DNA of 32,000 nucleotides from a cyanobacterium endosymbiont of Epithemia turgida isolate EtSB Lake Yunoko (GTDB taxonomy: Bacteria; Cyanobacteriota; Cyanobacteriia; Cyanobacteriales; Microcystaceae), in NCBI RefSeq assembly GCF_000829235.1, contig NZ_AP012549.1, positions 2,430,001-2,462,000 on the forward strand. Reading direction: 5' to 3'. A program made the position numbers and the translations under genes. Positions 2,364 through 29,777 of the stretch are shown piece by piece. The notes under the pieces were generated by a model, which searched no databases, had not been told where the DNA came from, and saw only the letters and a list, made by a program, of their open reading frames with translations. Position 1 is the stretch's first letter. Each line of letters starts with the position of its first letter.

Positions 2364-3632
2364 GATAGACCCAAAATGGATAGTTTTACATTTCTATTGG
2401 TTGTATCACCTTATTCTAAATTGTAAATGACTTCTAAGCCTAGGATAATGGTCACTTCCTATGCTTCATAACTATCAATTTTTATAAAAAATATTCTACT
2501 ATAGATGGTAATCTTGTGAAGTGTGATGAAGCAGAATACGAGGTGTAAAGTTTTTTTGAATTAAACATTATAAAGTGTGGTGCTTATCAGTTTTGGGGTA
2601 TTATTGACACTATTGTTGTAATTTAGTCGGTTTTTATTGATGCAAACGTGAAAAAAGAGTTTTTATCCCTCATACCATGCCATAGCCGCTTTATAGTTAA
2701 ATTTTTAATCTAGTTTATGAGCTTTGATGAAAGATTTATCAATTATTTATTGAAATGTATGAATTATAGTTAGGTTTTATTTTCATATCTGTATTCATTT
2801 GCTTACCTTATCTTGAACTAGATTAAGTTCTAATTTACATCTCACTTATTTTTATCATCTATTTAGATGAAGTTTAGCTAAAACTGGTCATAGTAGACTT
2901 TTAATTAAAAATTGATAGATAAACTATATAAAAGCGTAGGTAATCGCTAAAGTTGAAGAGCAAAAAACTGACATAAAAGAGTAGATTATAGAAATAAAGG
3001 ATCAGTGTGGAGACTTATACATAAAAATCAAGTTTTATTTAGACTTCTACCTTTTTTTGTAACTAAGCCCAATATTCATATCATGATAATCTGTCTGAGA
3101 TGTATAACGATTTATTCAATGATCTGTAATCTAGTATTATGATTATAAATAGCTAAAAATTAACGATTTTTAGTTATATCAAGAAGGTATTAGTCAGTTG
3201 AAAGCCTAGAAATAGAGAAAGACGGTAAAATTATTTATTTAACATTCACAGTTTAGAATTATTTTTGAAATGATATAATCCAGTTTTTATACTATGCCTT
3301 GTCAAGACATAAATAATGGAGCTAAAGAGTTAATCGATGACTGATATTAAATCTGAAGAGATAACTTTCTTCAGATTTAACTTTAACCTTATTTTAGTTT
3401 TGGCGTATTTAAACTAAAATTTAATTCTCTTATTGTGATCTACTTATTTTTTAAAATATTTAGTCATTATTGAATAATTTCAAGTTAATCCGATATATGG
3501 TAGCTAATTGATTTATTCCCGACAGTACATATTGTAGGAAACCGGGCATAATGGAGCTCCTAAAGACATCAAAATGACGAAGTCGCTATCAACTGATGAG
3601 ACGAAAGAAATAGGTTAATCCTCTCCATAGAA

Positions 3633-8695: not shown

Positions 8696-10377
8696 GGTTT
8701 GATGAGGATGGAGTAAGATTATCCTTATTGGTAAAGACTGTGTTTTCACTTTTGAGTGGCATTGGCTGACTATACTAGTTAATTATAGCGTTATCTTTTA
8801 GCTTTTTAATCAATCTAGCTCATATCGTGATCGCTTTTTTAAAACAATTATCATCTGTATAATTGCCATTAGATTTAAATTTAAATTAGATCAAAGTATT
8901 CTAATTAGTTTAGCTGATTCTACGGTTAAAAAATTTCGTTAAAGATAAATAAGTTTACTAAACCAAATCCTAAAATCGGAGCAGAAAGACTACTACTGCA
9001 GCCATAGTGTTTATGGCTCCATAGCCAGCGCTTAAAATAAACAGACTGACACTAAGGACATTTCCTATTGAGACTGCTAATCTTTTTCGAGACGACAGAC
9101 AGAATCTTGTAGGGGGATAATTCCTTTTTTTAGCGGATTTTTTTTTTATAAGTAACTATTGAATGATCGATAAAGTAAAAAGTAACTTTGAGAAAAGATA
9201 TTATGGTGAGTAATTAAGCCCGAAGGATACATTTTAAAACCTGAAACAAAATAATCTCTAACTAATAGAATAAAATAACCTCTCAACTACTTCTATCTGA
9301 AAAGACGAAGGGTAAGTGAACAGGAGTTAGATATTATTGACAGATAGACTTAAATATAATCTAGTCCAGAAACATAAAGGGATTGTAAAAAATAAAGGAT
9401 AAAAAATCAACAAAACAGAGGAGATTCTCAAAATAGGAGATAGCTATCGGTACTCTTATAAAGAAATTAATAGCTAAGGCTAAGTTCCATTATACTTGAT
9501 CACTGAATCTTAATGTTCGGACTTTAGCCGCTTATTCGAAATATTTGATAATTTATCTCATGACCAAAAATAAAGTTTCATAGTATAAACATCTAAAAAA
9601 TTACAGTTCTCAGTCAAAAAAGAAAAGTAACATTCAATTAAAAACTTAGAGATAAAGGAAAATAGGACGACAGTTTATTCAAAAGAGTTATATAAAGTCA
9701 AGGTTTTAAAAAATTTTTACAAATAATATTGTTATATTTTATTTTGCTAAGATTATCAAAACTTAAATAAAGCATTATATCTTAAACTTTACTGGCATCT
9801 TATTTTAAAGCAAAAGCTAACAGCTCAAACATAAAAACTATGTCACTGACAGAGAATAACACTAACTAAAATGTTCAATAAGTAGAAAAATTCGGTTGAA
9901 TAATATAAAGATTAGGTATTTTTTAAACATTGTAAAAACAATAAAGAATTGTTGTTTCTAATCAAACACTTAATCAAGTAGTACTGCTGACAGCATAAAT
10001 GACTAAATGCATTGTTGACAATTCTAGCAGGAGCTTAGACCTAATCAACATATTAAAACTTCAAGAAAACCCATAGCCAGTCATAGTTAAATATCCTAAC
10101 TTTGTTAAAGTGATTTCTCTTGCCTGATGGGGTTTCAAAACAGTATGTAAATATCCTGAAATACTATGTTTTTTACATTAATCAAAAACGATATTAACTG
10201 AAACAGATGAAAATAAAATAGGGAAGAAAATAGTTGTAATTCAAAACAAAATCTAAGCAGAAGAAGATTTCATCAAATGGTTAAGAATCATCGCTCCACA
10301 GTATAATAGAAAAACAAGCTCTTGTTATTTTGATAACAATATAAAAATATTTTTAAAAGCTTTAACTGACTGTCACA

Positions 10378-11187: not shown

Positions 11188-11239
11188 ATTTTAGATAGTA
11201 CACATTGACAAATTATGTCAAATGTGTACTATCTAAAAT
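11188..11239. promoter_or_regulatory. 52-bp near-perfect palindrome carrying a consensus TTGACA on each strand (candidate bidirectional promoter or operator)
   Basis: 23 bp pair (11188-11210 with 11216-11239), with one bulged A and a 5-nt loop aatta. Plus strand: TTGACA 11205-11210, N16, TACTAT 11227-11232. Minus strand: TTGACA 11221-11216, N15, TACTAT 11200-11195, pointing at infC 186 nt away. Confidence 0.45.
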
Positions 11240-12319: not shown

Positions 12320-12372
12320 ATAAAATTAACCAGTAAAATTTAAAATCTGAGAATTTTACTGGTTAATTTTAT
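12320..12372. repeat. Inverted repeat, 21-bp perfect arms, 11-nt loop
   Basis: 12320-12340 (ataaaattaaccagtaaaatt) pairs perfectly with 12352-12372 (aattttactggttaattttat). It lies in the middle of the infC-msrA spacer. Confidence 0.75.
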
Positions 12373-14182: not shown

Positions 14183-14238
14183 AATGATTCCTAGTATATA
14201 TAATTAATAATTATTAATTATATATACTAGGAATCATT
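14183..14238. repeat. 56-bp perfect palindrome with no loop (cruciform-capable)
   Basis: aatgattcctagtatatataattaataa | ttattaattatatatactaggaatcatt. Every one of the 28 pairs was checked. Only 8 of 56 positions are G/C. Confidence 0.9.
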
Positions 14239-24924: not shown

Positions 24925-26219
24925 TTGACTTTGCTTAAAACCTCAGCGTTCAATGTTTCCACAATCCATATTCTTTCCAATGGGTTGACCATCATGGCTG
25001 AACAAATGCCAGTTAAAGTGATCAATTTAAACCTCTGGTTAAAAGTAATATCTACGTTGTAATTCAATTATCTTAATGGGATAGCGTATTTATTAGAATA
25101 TATGATTTTCAAAGGAATCTCTCACCTCAAAAGGAGAGAATTTGAACGATTACTTGAATAACAAGGAGCACTGACCAATGCAGCGACTCTCCAAGAGAGT
25201 ACTTATTACTACATCAATTGTGTGCTCCAAAATTTCAAAGACCTTGCCCCATTGCAATTAGATGTGATCTTTAATCCTAATATTGCTGATGAGGCATTTG
25301 AACGAGAACGGTTAGTAGTTTTAGAAGAAATCCACTGGTCGAATGATAATTCTCGTCTTGGGACTTTTTACAGGGCGATGGAGCCCTGTTTTAAGATTTT
25401 GCCCTATTGTCGTCGCGTGCTAAAACCAGCATCCACCATTAAAGGATTAATTGCCCAACAAATGCGAGACTTTCACAAAACTTAGTATCAACTTGAATTG
25501 GTAATAGCACTGACAGTAGGTAATCTTTCTGTAGAAATGTTAATTTACATTTTAGCGACGAGTTTGAGTCAAACCTGTAAGTATTCTAGAATTAAGCCCC
25601 AAAATAAGCAAAAGAGAAAAGAGGTTAAGTTTTTATTTAAAGTTTCTTTTGCTAGAATTGTGCGTCGGGAATTTGATGATTCCAGTGTACGGTAATCTCG
25701 CTTAATAATGATGTGGCAAGTTCCTGAGTTAGTTAAATTAGATAGAATCTATGCTTTGAATGTATTAGCAGTTATTTTAGGGCAGAGAAAAATCTCGCGA
25801 TTATGTCGGGATTTACGCGAAGACAAGAAGTTAGTTTCCCGTATTAACGTTAACAATATAACCCCCAAAATTTAAGACATATTTTATATATTAGCTCAAT
25901 GACTATCAGAAAATGTTCTGGAGGTGGAACGAATTATCATTGAGTAAATTACCAATATCAGGCAAATATCAGTGATTGAAACTGAATTGAATTGTGTACG
26001 AATTCAGGTAGCTAATCGGTTTGTATTTAGTAGTGAAAGTCCGAGCAATCGTACTCATCTTTATGGGGATTATTATTCTCAGTTACAGTATTTGGAATCA
26101 GCTTTGATCTATCCAATCGTATACAAGCTCTGAGTTTAGAAAATATCCAAGAAGCTGCTTTTGATTATTTGTCTTCTAAAAACTATAGGATTAAGGGAGT
26201 ACATTCTACTCATAAATAA
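24925..26219 (+). pseudogene. Pseudogene of an M16 (pitrilysin-family) zinc peptidase / processing protease
   Basis: A single frame from 24925 reads LTLLKTSAFNVSTIHILSNGLTIMAEQMPV...NGIAYLLEYMIFKG...LVVLEEI...QQMRDFHKT*YQ... There are in-frame stops at 25060, 25159, 25483, 25693, 25873, 25900 and 25945, and one frameshift near 26100. The natural TAA is at 26217-26219. The expected zinc motif HxxEH is YLLEY (TAT at 25087 and 25099). Track ORFs 25222..25485 and 25498..25695 are fragments of it. Confidence 0.85.
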
Positions 26220-26239: not shown

Positions 26240-27109
26240 ATGTGGACACAAATTGCTCAACATATTTCTCAGGCTACTCAACAGGAGTTTCGGACTAAAA
26301 ACCGACGTTCTGTTAATGGAGGTTGTATCAATCAATGTTACTCCTTAATTGGGGATAACATTACCTATTTTGTTAAAATCAACCAAGCTTCCCAGGTAGA
26401 AATGTTTGCGGCTGAAGCATTGGGTTTAAAACAGATATCAAACACTAAGACCATTCGTGTTCCTCAACCAATTTGTTGGGGAATAGCAGAAAAAACTAGT
26501 TACATTGTACTTGAATGGATGAAATTTGGTCGAGGGACTAATCAATTTTGGGAGGAGATGGGACGTAAATTGGGGACGATGCATCACCATCAAGGGGCTG
26601 ATCAATTTGGTTGGGAACAAAACAATACGATTGGTTCTATCTCTCAGATAAATATTTGGACTGATAGTTGGGCAGATTTTTTTGCAGAATACCGTATTGG
26701 TTATCAATTGAAGTTGGCAAGACGACGTGGGGGAAATTTTCCTGACTGTACTCAAGTTGTGGAAATGGTTAGGGAATTATTAGCCCATAGACAACCTAAA
26801 CCTTCTTTGGTACACGGGGATTTGTGGTCAGGAAATGTAGCGGTAACTCAGGAAGGAGAACCGGTTATTTTAGATCCTGCTACTTATTATGGCGATCATG
26901 AAGTTGATCTAGCGATTACAGAACTGTTTGGAGGATTTGGGCGTGGATTTTATAGAAGCTATAATGAAGTTTTTCCTTTAGAAAAAGGTTATCAAAAACG
27001 AAAAATGATTTATAATCTTTATCATATTATAAATCATTTTAATTTATTTGGAGGTGGATATAGAGCCCAGGTTAATCAAATGATTCAGAGAATTATAACT
27101 AATGGATAA
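26240..27109 (+). CDS. Fructosamine/ketosamine-3-kinase family protein
   Basis: 289 aa with an ATG start. It has the kinase motif LVHGDLWSGN, DPATYYGDHEVDLA and an N-terminal NGGCINQCY. It starts 20 nt after the stop of the M16 pseudogene. Confidence 0.85.
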   Translation: MWTQIAQHISQATQQEFRTKNRRSVNGGCINQCYSLIGDNITYFVKINQASQVEMFAAEALGLKQISNTKTIRVPQPICWGIAEKTSYIVLEWMKFGRGTNQFWEEMGRKLGTMHHHQGADQFGWEQNNTIGSISQINIWTDSWADFFAEYRIGYQLKLARRRGGNFPDCTQVVEMVRELLAHRQPKPSLVHGDLWSGNVAVTQEGEPVILDPATYYGDHEVDLAITELFGGFGRGFYRSYNEVFPLEKGYQKRKMIYNLYHIINHFNLFGGGYRAQVNQMIQRIITNG

Positions 27110-27170
27110 TGCTGAGATACTGAAAGTGTATACCCAAATTGAGGGCGATAGGTTACCTTATTATTAACTA

Positions 27171-27605
27171 TTATTTGGATTGACAATAACTATTTATTCT
27201 ATTTCCCAATTCTGGTTCTTTTTGACCTAATTGTTGCAGTTGCTGTTGCATCAACTTAACTGTGTTGATATCCTTTTTTTGTAATGCGAATATGAACTGC
27301 CGAGTTGTTTGAGCGTATCCTTGGTAAATATTAGCAAATTCTAGCTGATATTTAACTAAATTTTTATCATAAATAGATAGATTTCTCATCTCAGCTGCTG
27401 CTTTTTCAAAAGAGTCAGCCACTTGTAATGCTTTTTGGATATCTTCTGTTTTACGATTAGCGTGGCTTTCTTTAGCGATTGCTTGAGTAATTGAGATTAT
27501 TTTTTTACATTGAAAGACTCTATTTTCAGAACAACTAACTAAAATTATATTCGGCAAAATAATTAACAATAGAGCGATTATAAAAATTTTTTTAAAAAAA
27601 GTCAT
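27171..27605 (-). CDS. Orphan helical lipoprotein, function unknown
   Basis: 144 aa with an ATG start. It has a signal peptide with lipobox LVSC, and the remainder is helical and Q/K-rich. It lies 5 nt downstream of the preceding small ORF. Confidence 0.6.
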   Translation of the reverse strand: MTFFKKIFIIALLLIILPNIILVSCSENRVFQCKKIISITQAIAKESHANRKTEDIQKALQVADSFEKAAAEMRNLSIYDKNLVKYQLEFANIYQGYAQTTRQFIFALQKKDINTVKLMQQQLQQLGQKEPELGNRINSYCQSK

Positions 27606-27610
27606 TGTAA

Positions 27611-27892
27611 CTAATTAGAAGAAGTAGTACTGTTTACTAAAGTTCGGAGAATATTAGTTAGTTGAGTCAACTGCTCGTTTGATTCACTTTGCTTATCTAT
27701 TAAGGTTTGTATAGATTCAGTTAAAATAAATATTTGATATCTCTGCTGTTGTATTTGATTTTTTTGTCGTTCTATTTTTTTAGATACATCATTTATTTTT
27801 TTAGCTAATTCTTCTACTGTATTTGTAGTTGCAATTATGGCTTCTCCTATATTTTTTATGATGTTGGTTAATTGCTCAGTTTGATCACTCAT
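27611..27892 (-). CDS. Orphan 93-aa coiled-coil protein, function unknown
   Basis: The track calls GTG at 27910. I prefer ATG at 27892, which has AAGGA (27907-27903) 10 nt upstream. The GTG codon lies inside the 60-bp palindrome. The sequence is heptad-like and Q/E/K/I-rich. Confidence 0.5.
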   Translation of the reverse strand: MSDQTEQLTNIIKNIGEAIIATTNTVEELAKKINDVSKKIERQKNQIQQQRYQIFILTESIQTLIDKQSESNEQLTQLTNILRTLVNSTTSSN

Positions 27893-27899
27893 TATATTG

Positions 27900-27959
27900 T
27901 TTTCCTTCACAAAGCACCGATATTATTATATAATAATATCGGTGCTTTGTGAAGGAAAA
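27900..27959. promoter_or_regulatory. 60-bp perfect palindrome encoding mirror-image sigma70-type promoters (TTCACA-N17-TATAAT on both strands)
   Basis: All 30 pairs were checked (ttttccttcacaaagcaccgatattattat | ataataatatcggtgctttgtgaaggaaaa). Minus strand: -35 at 27953-27948 and -10 at 27930-27925. Plus strand: -35 at 27906-27911 and -10 at 27929-27934. The left arm contains the AAGGA ribosome-binding site of the downstream small ORF. Confidence 0.55.
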
Positions 27960-28044
27960 TTTCTGGGGTTTTGAAGTAATAGTTTAACAAGTTTATTAAT
28001 TTGGTAAGTTGACACTGAGTACAATCTACCCAAAATAGGTTTTA

Positions 28045-28074
28045 AGTTTACCTCACTTGTCCGTGAGGTAAACT
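28045..28074 (-). terminator. Hairpin terminator downstream of galE
   Basis: 12-bp perfect stem (28045-28056 / 28063-28074, agtttacctcac...gtgaggtaaact) with a 6-nt loop. It lies about 105 nt after the galE stop. In minus-strand sense it is followed by ttaaaacctatttt. Confidence 0.55.
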
Positions 28075-28179
28075 CTGTATTACTGGCCAAGTTCCTTAAT
28101 TTAAGCCATCATTAAGAAATATTAACCAAGCACAAATCTATAAGTTTGAAGAATTTTTAGCTAAAATTAGATATTTTTC

Positions 28180-29187
28180 TTACTTATTTGCATTTCCATG
28201 ACGTTTTTGATGCCAATACCAAGCATGATTAACAATTGTTTCTAAGTCTGGATACTTAGGTTTCCAACCCAGGGCAATCCGGGCTTTTTGGCTACTGCCG
28301 ACTAGGATAGGGGGATCTCCTGGACGACGATCATTTTCTTGAACTGGAAAATCGATCTGCGTTATTTTTTTAGCGGTTTCAATTACTTCGCGTACGGAAA
28401 ATCCATTGCCATTGCCCAAATTGAAAACATCACTTTTTCCTTCTTCTAAAAGGTATTCTAATCCTAAGACATGAGCTGAAGCTAGATCATCAACATGAAT
28501 ATAATCTCTAACTGCTGTTCCATCTGGAGTATCATAATCTGTCCCAAAAATAGACAGATAATTCTGTATTTTTAATGCTGTTAATAACGCTAAAGGAATT
28601 AAGTGGGTTTCGGGATGATGATCTTCTCCTAACCTTCCCTGGGGATTGGCTCCTGACGCATTAAAATAACGGAAAGCGACAGACTTTAAATTATAGGCTC
28701 GATCAAAGTCTTGCAAAATTTGTTCTATCATTGCCTTACTAACTGCATAGGGACTCAAGGGATTTTGGGGATGGTTCTCCATCATTGGAATTTGTTGAGA
28801 CATTCCATAGATGGCGCAAGTAGAGGAAAAGACAAACCTTTTGATGTTGGCAGCTAACATAGCTTCTAATAAAGTCAAGGTACCAACTACATTATTACGA
28901 TAATATCGACCAGGATTAGTTACTGATTCCCCAACAGCAATGTAGGCAGCAAAGTGCATCACTGCCGCAATGTCGTGGTGGGCGAAAAGTTTATCGAGTA
29001 CGGGACGATCATTCATATCTCCCACAATCAATTTAACTTGTAATACATCCTCAACAAATTCAGGATGTCCTTCGCTGAGATTATCTAAGATGATTACGTT
29101 GTATCCCGACTCTTGGAGAGCAAGTACAACATGGGAACCAATATACCCTGCTCCTCCTGTTACTAAAATAGTAGATTTTGTGACCAT
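28180..29187 (-). CDS. galE: UDP-glucose 4-epimerase
   Basis: 335 aa with an ATG start. It has the Rossmann motif TGGAGYIGSH, the catalytic YxxxK (SPYAVSK) and an SDR extended-family layout. Confidence 0.88.
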   Translation of the reverse strand: MVTKSTILVTGGAGYIGSHVVLALQESGYNVIILDNLSEGHPEFVEDVLQVKLIVGDMNDRPVLDKLFAHHDIAAVMHFAAYIAVGESVTNPGRYYRNNVVGTLTLLEAMLAANIKRFVFSSTCAIYGMSQQIPMMENHPQNPLSPYAVSKAMIEQILQDFDRAYNLKSVAFRYFNASGANPQGRLGEDHHPETHLIPLALLTALKIQNYLSIFGTDYDTPDGTAVRDYIHVDDLASAHVLGLEYLLEEGKSDVFNLGNGNGFSVREVIETAKKITQIDFPVQENDRRPGDPPILVGSSQKARIALGWKPKYPDLETIVNHAWYWHQKRHGNANK

Positions 29188-29777
29188 GAGATCTCCTTAA
29201 AACTTTATGATTAATAGGACATAAGACACAATAATGAACATCTCTATTCCTTTAATGGTCCTCTCTCTTAATTTAAGATAAGGTATCAAGTTGATTAAGA
29301 AAACCAATTATGAAGAGTCTTAAGTCGAAGATGATTTATGTTAAAAACTTTTAAATAAAAAAATATCTTCATAAGAATGGTTATTGATCCAGTCTTTGAA
29401 ATTGATACTTAAAAAGTAATCTGATTTACTAAAAAATTTAATCTATTAAAATATTGAAGTAATAGATCTAAAAACTAATTAACAAGAAACCCATGGACAA
29501 GTTTATAGACGCATAATTTACTTTAGTCATAATCAATCTTAATTAGTTAATTATATAAAAAGTATCTTTCTTTATCCTCTACTATTTATCTATTAAGACG
29601 CTTTAAAAGTAGCAATTATTAATTTTTTCCAATAAAGACTAGACCGTTTGCATAAATAATATTTGAATTGTTTTAAATTAACTTTTCCTTTGACTTTGAT
29701 GATATTTAATTGCTCACCGATTAACAGCATAAACTTAGGTCTTAAGGACTTGACTTTTTTGTTGGTGAGGTTGTAGC

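Follow-up and report, generated by a model that had tools for sequence, protein, structure and literature searches.

A 60-bp perfect palindrome upstream of orf93-orf144 in the Epithemia turgida diazoplast: most likely a recent mirroring of an older promoter-like site by copying errors

The palindrome, its promoter-like sites and its fold

The window analysed here, 32,000 nucleotides of the genome of the Epithemia turgida spheroid body, or diazoplast, the nitrogen-fixing endosymbiont of this diatom (contig NZ_AP012549.1, positions 2,430,001 to 2,462,000), has a G+C content of about 34%, contains gene fragments, and carries at 27900-27959 a perfect palindrome of 60 bp, the final form, found in E. 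turgida only, of an inverted repeat of 57 bp that is specific to its clade. It lies in the spacer between two co-oriented genes. Downstream of it the first gene is orf93 (27611-27892, minus strand), which encodes a small coiled-coil-like protein of 93 codons, and this is followed 6 nt further on by the start of orf144 (27171-27605, minus strand), whose product has a hydrophobic N-terminus with a cysteine and is lipoprotein-like by eye. Upstream lies galE (28180-29187, minus strand), coding for UDP-glucose 4-epimerase (Pfam Epimerase, 1e-62; exact match to BAP18412.1 / WP_044107249.1). No Pfam family scored above threshold for orf93, and its homologues (66-86% identity) were recovered only from diazoplasts and close Aphanothecaceae relatives, including free-living ones; the orf93-orf144 synteny is kept in all of the relatives.

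The palindrome consists of two 30-nt arms, TTTTCCTTCACAAAGCACCGATATTATTAT followed directly by ATAATAATATCGGTGCTTTGTGAAGGAAAA, which are 100% complementary and have no spacer between them. The arms have a G+C content of 30% and the central 20 bp are composed of A/T only. An earlier reading of this DNA made from the sequence alone (hereafter the sequence-only reading) had described just such a loopless structure, and its existence is confirmed. That reading had also placed TTCACA, 17 nt and TATAAT on both strands, with the -10 boxes overlapping by 2 bp, and both sites were located. The site in the direction of the genes occupies 27925-27953 on the minus strand, with a sigma70-type -35 element TTCACA at 27953-27948 and a -10 element TATAAT at 27930-27925, and would direct transcription from a predicted transcription start site (TSS) at ~27918-27917; it represents the ancestral half of the element (see below). 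The mirror site occupies 27906-27934 on the plus strand, with a predicted TSS at ~27941 that would yield RNA antisense to the 3' end of galE, and is read here as a passenger copy. Both sites agree with the consensus at 11/12 positions and are the two best promoter-consensus matches in 27000-29400; ~0.01 such matches would be expected per window. Their predicted divergent TSSs, taken from the consensus matches, lie ~23 bp apart (~27918 on the minus and ~27941 on the plus strand). The AAGGA preceding the ATG at 27892 was likewise found as had been described: this Shine-Dalgarno-like motif (27903-27907, minus strand) is situated inside the gene-side arm, 10 nt upstream of the ATG. No open reading frame (ORF) of at least 50 aa was found on the plus strand between the palindrome and galE.

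When the window was shuffled 30 times under an order-2 Markov model, the longest perfect hairpin arm did not exceed 13 nt, as against the 30 nt of the palindrome. For the single-stranded 60-mer the predicted folding energy is -41.9 kcal/mol if it is taken as RNA and -30.8 kcal/mol if it is taken as DNA (z = -14). In a 241-nt RNA modelled as read-through from galE the minimum-energy structure holds the full helix with the AAGGA paired, in agreement with the proposal that such RNA would bury the ribosome-binding site, while the AAGGA would be free in an RNA begun at the predicted TSS at ~27918. The palindrome is not an intrinsic terminator by our scan: no terminator-like site was detected in 27000-29400, the G+C content of the arm is low, and the sense-strand tail is CAAUAUAAUG. 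Against Rfam 15 no family reached its gathering score; only generic miRNA-type hairpins were returned, at no more than 39 bits versus thresholds of 47-200.

The physical reality of the 60-bp form is supported by the behaviour of short-read assemblies. When canonical k-mers with k=31 are used, contigs must split at the centre of any palindrome that lacks a spacer and whose arms reach k-1 = 30 nt or more. Such a split is seen in SRR29904087 (Logan assembly, k=31), where two contigs, one encoding the exact orf93 protein and the other the exact GalE, both stop at the centre of the palindrome, whereas contigs with the 57-bp variants of the relatives run through without a break. As the break falls where it is predicted and the 57-bp forms are spanned, the 60-bp form is real and no artefact; moreover, the palindromic element is seen in five independent assemblies and a complete genome, and misassembly could be discarded on these combined grounds. 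The ends of Logan k=31 contigs (L001:1, L002:5067 and L031:1) coincide with the centre of a palindrome whose arms reach 30 nt or more, both here and at a 63-bp palindrome of E. adnata. Palindromes of this size thus systematically fragment short-k assemblies of these genomes, breaking k=31 contigs at their centres.

The sequence-only reading had stated that many dispersed copies would indicate a mobile element. None was encountered: no copy of the arm was found at another locus in the window (with 3 mismatches allowed), in 34 loci or in the ~60 kb of related loci. In a genome-contig collection a first scan gave 0 matches and a second gave 15 single chance 19-mers (in Acinetobacter and others), none of them cyanobacterial, the genomes of this species being evidently not represented there; the same limit holds for metagenome contigs, among which a 21-mer scan gave 0 matches and a protein-based scan recovered no relative. 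Within all the sequence searched the arm occurs at one locus only, and a dispersed element was set aside.

History of the locus among relatives

Comparison over the 2-kb galE-orf144 segment grouped E. turgida with E. adnata (98.9% identity) and the lineage L003 with L028/L029 (99.6%), the two pairs being joined at 96%; the R. sterrenbergii spheroid body (L008) stands outside them at 89%, and the lineages L004 and L006 at 84%. Perfect or near-perfect forms of 57-60 bp are confined to the first four, i.e. the E. turgida / E. adnata clade. Written in gene orientation, from the start of the upstream arm to the end of the gene-side arm, the E. turgida element of 60 bp runs from TTTTCC to GGAAAA with the centre TATATA. 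That of E. adnata, read from the complete genome CP076462.1 as well as from a Logan contig, has 57 bp, runs from TTTTCT to GGAAAA with a single T·G mismatch, and has the centre TAT. In L003 the 57-bp element has perfect arms running from TTTTCT to AGAAAA, again with the centre TAT, while L028/L029 have the same arms with the centre ATA. Position 6 of the arm therefore forms a series, with C/G in E. turgida, T/G (still unmatched) in E. adnata and T/A (mirrored) in L003 and L028. Arm homogenisation at this locus is thus represented by one mirrored substitution pair, and spacer inversion by the L028/L029 element, which is the exact reverse complement of that of L003 within flanks that are 99.6% identical. 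The E. adnata mismatch is the sole unmirrored arm difference and is G·U-compatible on the sense RNA, with predicted energies of -37.7 kcal/mol for the sense versus -33.8 kcal/mol for the antisense strand.

The outgroups R. sterrenbergii, L004 and L006 possess an intact orf93-orf144 pair without the palindrome. At the homologous centre only 18/30 positions are complementary in R. sterrenbergii and ~16/30 in each of L004 and L006, a symmetry at the level of background, and the outgroup hairpins amount to -5.9 and -2.3 kcal/mol. The ancestral state was accordingly one of imperfect symmetry (18/30, ~16/30), just as parallel loci descend from single-arm or quasi-palindromic ancestors (see below). 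The ATAAT core is unchanged in 7/7 aligned lineages; R. sterrenbergii and L006 have TTCATA-N16-TATAAT, L004 has a weaker -35 element, and the AAGGA is present in R. sterrenbergii and absent in L004 and L006. The earlier proposal of a leftward promoter thus appears plausible, with an invariant ATAAT core and a TTCAYA-like -35 element at 16-17 nt kept in the diazoplast lineages examined, and the gene-side half plausibly still works as the promoter and ribosome-binding site of orf93-orf144, to judge from consensus and conservation. The mirror site behaves otherwise. In its full form it occurs only in E. turgida and is absent from the outgroups; in the 57-bp relatives one strand has TTCACA-N14-TATAAT or N17-AATAAT, and the strand with the better version flips between lineages that are 99.6% identical. 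These facts speak against the reading of the element as a designed cassette.

The outgroups also reveal the direction of change. With R. sterrenbergii as the reference, ancestral sequence is kept in each arm, distally in the upstream one (CCTTCAyAAAG) and proximally in the gene-side one (ATAATATCG). The partner segments, CTTTGTGAAGG and CGATATTAT, are derived and match these as exact reverse complements. Copying would thus have proceeded both ways, in at least two events. The E. turgida centre TATATA consists of the TAT spacer and its own complement ATA, adding 3 bp specific to this genome; since ATTATTAT-ATAAT is found in the outgroup as well as in the rest of the clade, it is in E. turgida that this change is derived. 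The suggestion of the sequence-only reading that perfection argues for selection or very recent origin can accordingly be divided: very recent origin is borne out, with the last 3 bp absent even from the sister at 98.9% identity, and a selected cassette is not.

These observations could be accommodated by the following scenario. The diazoplast ancestor would have had a sigma70-type promoter-like TTCAYA-N16/17-TATAAT ~35-40 nt upstream of orf93, with an AT-rich -10 region of weak self-symmetry. Before the E. turgida / E. adnata clade diversified, one arm would have templated the other at least twice, in opposite directions, to give a 57-bp repeat with 27-nt arms and a TAT spacer. Ongoing arm-to-arm copying might then have held the arms identical, as in the mirrored change from C-G to T-A, and flipped the spacer in one lineage, and in E. 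turgida the 3-nt spacer would have been copied across to produce the perfect 60-bp form. The mirror half would be a passenger, with an outward-facing promoter-like site and a hairpin of ~-42 kcal/mol in the galE read-through RNA, occluding the AAGGA, as its side effects. We consider it likely (with a probability of roughly 70%) that the palindrome arose in this manner by replication template switching, i.e. quasipalindrome correction or inverted duplication, on a pre-existing promoter and 5' untranslated region (UTR). The comparison documents how this sequence changed and that like events took place elsewhere; we infer the mechanism, the promoter activity and the neutrality or near-neutrality of the change.

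The spacer that houses the palindrome has features of its own. It measures about 250-290 nt in diazoplasts versus ~40 nt in the free-living L007 (GCA_002110465.1), which is without such an element (L007:2440-2660 compared with 27893-28179 of the window). At 28045-28074 it contains a second hairpin with a 12-bp stem, kept in most diazoplasts, which has no U-tract and is not terminator-like by scan. The 6-nt loop of this hairpin reads TTGCCC in L003/L028. Inverted and complemented, it gives the GGGCAA of L006 and comes within one base of the GGACAA of E. turgida, and this suggests a second case of spacer inversion, at least from the aligned loops. The ~90 nt between this hairpin and the palindrome are well conserved and non-coding. 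The idea that the spacer is a decayed duplicate of the galE 3' end, which arose from MAFFT aligning the galE tail of L007 to it, was rejected, local alignment scores being below the shuffle means (19.5 vs 25.7; 20.5 vs 24.0). A small protein encoded by the conserved spacer was likewise rejected, as stop codons or indels interrupt the frame of a 54-aa ORF in L004, L006 and L009. Further downstream, 25222-26133 holds short ORF fragments, one with a weak match to Peptidase_M16_C, where the relatives L004, L006 and L008 encode an intact M16 peptidase of 433 aa adjoining the fructosamine kinase gene (26240-27109, plus strand, in the window); in E. turgida this region is likely to be an M16 peptidase pseudogene.

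Other palindromes and competing explanations

The 60-mer is not alone in its behaviour. When perfect hairpins were counted whose arms measure 12 nt or more and whose loops do not exceed 20 nt, the window yielded 10 (0.31 per kb) against 0.17 expected under a Markov model; the density is 0.45 per kb in the relatives' loci and 0.085 per kb in 118 kb of unrelated bacterial DNA. A three-way comparison of the region around msrA-infC among the E. turgida window, the E. adnata spheroid body (L030) and the 96% lineage (L032) uncovered several such elements with unrelated sequences. A second perfect palindrome of 56 bp (14183-14238, ~360 nt upstream of msrA) differs from the perfect 63-bp version of E. 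adnata (L030:3081-3143) by three mirrored pairs and by no one-arm-only change, in genomes that are ~99% identical, and its counterpart in L032 (~3080-3175) has one arm only. A perfect inverted repeat with 21-nt arms (12320-12372) occurs in E. turgida only, E. adnata and L032 having a single arm, and is by this comparison a very recent inverted duplication. Downstream of infC an imperfect quasi-palindrome (10065-10136) is common to E. turgida and L032, while the E. adnata counterpart is a 69-bp perfect palindrome with 33-nt arms (L030:7200-7268); since the imperfect form is the shared one, one E. adnata arm was rewritten by many simultaneous substitutions and indels. The 63-bp palindromes with 30-nt arms at L030:1891-1953 and L032:1887-1949 differ by two mirrored pairs, by no one-arm-only change and in the spacer; no homologous sequence was found in the E. 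turgida window, and this region appears to have been lost there. Even the coding sequence of the fructosamine kinase gene contains a perfect hairpin with 15-nt arms (27002-27040), the complementarity of which rises from ~11/15 to 15/15 toward E. turgida and E. adnata, with neighbouring bases changed and amino acids replaced (KTI to KMI, IL to II), seemingly the footprint of a template switch in a protein.

Thus, within 1-4% divergence many palindromes of unrelated sequence arise, lengthen and undergo mirrored changes, which points to a mutational process rather than locus-specific selection. Since mirrored changes are equally found at palindromes far from start codons, covariation is not evidence of function in this genome. 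The other palindromes of this class are not consistently promoter-like. A separate observation concerns a hairpin with 19-nt arms at 11188-11239, ~190-240 nt upstream of infC, the arms of which are identical in three diazoplast genomes while the loop alone varies; at its centre TTGACA and TGTCAA face each other, giving promoter-like matches both ways. It may be a constrained regulatory element, unlike the palindromes of fast turnover.

Several points weigh against template switching as the origin of the 60-mer. At L030:7200-7268 and at 12320-12372 a cluster of nucleotide changes can clearly be assigned to a single branch, whereas at 27900 no lineage stands between the 18/30 and 27/27 states; as such intermediate taxa are missing, we infer rather than observe the number and order of the switch events. 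The arms have stayed perfect over ~4% divergence, which is compatible with selection for the hairpin, and the sole unmirrored difference, that of E. adnata, has the G·U compatibility on the sense RNA that selection at the RNA level would also give. Promoter activity in either direction is predicted from consensus and conservation, and the genome-wide claim is based on the ~12 kb of the three-way comparison and the 32-kb window.

Among the competing explanations a selected RNA-level insulator deserves the most attention. Here the hairpin would terminate galE read-through transcripts, or mark them for RNase III, and would hide the ribosome-binding site of orf93, with the operon being expressed only from its internal promoter by means of a single-arm transcript. 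The predicted fold of the read-through RNA (-41.9 kcal/mol, AAGGA paired) is what this would need, the predicted internal TSS falls inside the gene-side arm and would leave that transcript unstructured, and both the mirrored change from C-G to U-A with a G·U intermediate on the sense strand and the arm perfection held across ~4% divergence would agree with it. However, the outgroups have the intact operon and the promoter-like motif without the hairpin (16-18/30; -2 to -6 kcal/mol), which, by a refuting condition that the sequence-only reading had itself named, also leaves its promoter-insulator cassette unsupported. Furthermore, the hairpin has no U-tract and hence is not terminator-like, the AAGGA is not conserved in L004 and L006, and the flip and the fill of the spacer are events at the DNA level. 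Mirrored changes being as common at palindromes far from any start codon, they give no evidence of RNA selection here, and on balance we regard the insulator as improbable. Selection for a DNA-level device appears more improbable still, whether as a symmetric bidirectional promoter producing antisense RNA to the galE 3' end or as a supercoiling-sensitive promoter silenced by cruciform extrusion of the AT-rich centre. The two 11/12 matches with overlapping -10 boxes, predicted TSSs within the 7-25 bp that define bidirectional promoters, a DNA hairpin of -30.8 kcal/mol and the A/T-only centre of 20 bp would suit it. But the full mirror promoter is restricted to E. turgida, the 57-bp forms having a 14-nt spacer or an AATAAT -10 element and a favoured strand that flips at 99.6% identity. 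The geometry also departs from the 18-bp optimum with its reciprocal -7T/-11A pairing, no conserved target lies rightward, and the fellow palindromes lack a consistent resemblance to promoters.

Both remaining alternatives are given very little weight. The dyad symmetry over the promoter, with inner CACCGATAT/ATATCGGTG half-sites resembling a typical operator layout, might suggest an operator for a dimeric or tetrameric DNA-binding regulator repressing orf93-orf144; yet 60 bp of unbroken symmetry go far beyond any operator, symmetric half-sites are missing in outgroups with the same operon, the arm sequence is found nowhere else in the window or the ~60 kb of related loci, and many unrelated palindromes evolve alike. 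Long perfect palindromes can also be transposon relics or chimeric joins, and the spacer of ~285 nt in diazoplasts versus ~40 nt in free-living L007 could be taken to point to an inserted MITE/REP-like element or an assembly artefact. Nevertheless, parts of both arms can be aligned with sequence that the outgroups already have at this position, the window and the related loci hold no second copy, and exact-match scans with the arm gave no cyanobacterial match. The five independent assemblies and the complete genome that carry the element, along with the k=31 breaks that theory predicts, are equally at odds with this explanation.

In sum, the sequence-only reading is partly supported, its statements on the sequence itself all being correct, and the 60-mer most likely originated when a recent copying error mirrored an older promoter, which makes it one of many fast-changing palindromes and no purpose-built two-way switch. 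The locus illustrates clearly how, in nature, a mutational mechanism can yield, without the help of selection, a promoter-plus-RBS (ribosome-binding site) cassette that looks designed, together with base-pair changes that look compensatory, and cautions against taking perfection or covariation as proof of function. A more interesting lead than the 60-mer itself is the speed with which palindromes appear to be born and replaced in diazoplast genomes: dense, long, lineage-specific perfect palindromes turning over within 1-4% divergence in the Epithemia diazoplasts might mark the early evolution of organelle genomes in a measurable way. The word 'palindrome' was not found in the Epithemia literature retrieved by our search. 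A bolder proposal, which we put forward as doubtful speculation, is that palindromisation by template switching is unusually frequent in diazoplasts, perhaps via the loss of hairpin-processing or 3'-exonuclease functions, that it could serve as a source of regulatory novelty in a nascent organelle, and that the 60-mer is now used as a bidirectional promoter and an insulator occluding the ribosome-binding site.

Comparison with known systems

Intergenic palindromes capable of forming hairpins are likewise typical of the REP/BIME, MITE and cyanobacterial HIP1 elements. Those are multi-copy families with a shared sequence, whereas each palindrome described here is unique and derives from local sequence. 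In having promoter elements inside a palindrome the locus resembles the cruciform-controlled promoter reportedly built by Horwitz & Loeb in 1988 as an engineered E. coli construct; extrusion under negative supercoiling is reported for that construct, while the likeness here is one of sequence. Bacterial bidirectional promoters are described in PMC10268837 (citing Warman et al. 2021) as having divergent TSSs 7-25 bp apart, usually 18 bp, by virtue of the near-symmetry of the -10 hexamer alone, and at the 18-bp spacing -7T and -11A pair reciprocally. As in the symmetric sigma70 promoters so described, the -10 elements on opposite strands overlap here and the predicted starts fall within the 7-25 bp range. 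The canonical 18-bp geometry is nonetheless absent, the hexamers overlapping by only 2 bp at a predicted spacing of ~23 bp; unlike in those promoters, the -35 element and the 5' UTR are mirrored too, the mirror half is lineage-specific, and the starts are predicted.

The closest parallels are provided by template switching, which generates perfect stems in one event, multibase 'compensatory' changes, homogenisation of arms and inversion of spacers (PMC8794818; PMC8604942), and which is reported to expand inverted repeats near promoters (PMC13100816). The yeast GRE2 case presented there is similarly a recent, lineage-specific expansion of an inverted repeat overlapping promoter sequence; it is eukaryotic and is proposed to act via transcription-factor binding sites, whereas here core bacterial promoter hexamers and a ribosome-binding site were duplicated. 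The quasipalindrome template switch of the Ripley model (Monttinen & Loytynoja 2022, PMC8794818; Abraham & Hazkani-Covo 2021, PMC8604942) shares with the present locus an imperfect repeat made perfect and arms that are the reverse complement of adjacent sequence, and also the multibase 'compensatory' changes, the homogenised arms and, in the form of a 3-nt segment, the reversible inversion of the spacer. The arms of 27-33 nt seen here exceed the ~5-16 nt of the yeast and RNA-gene cases (PMC8794818, PMC8604942). The mechanism here is drawn from comparative patterns, and, unlike in those cases, the elements are unusually dense and lie mostly in the non-coding DNA of a genome-reduced endosymbiont.

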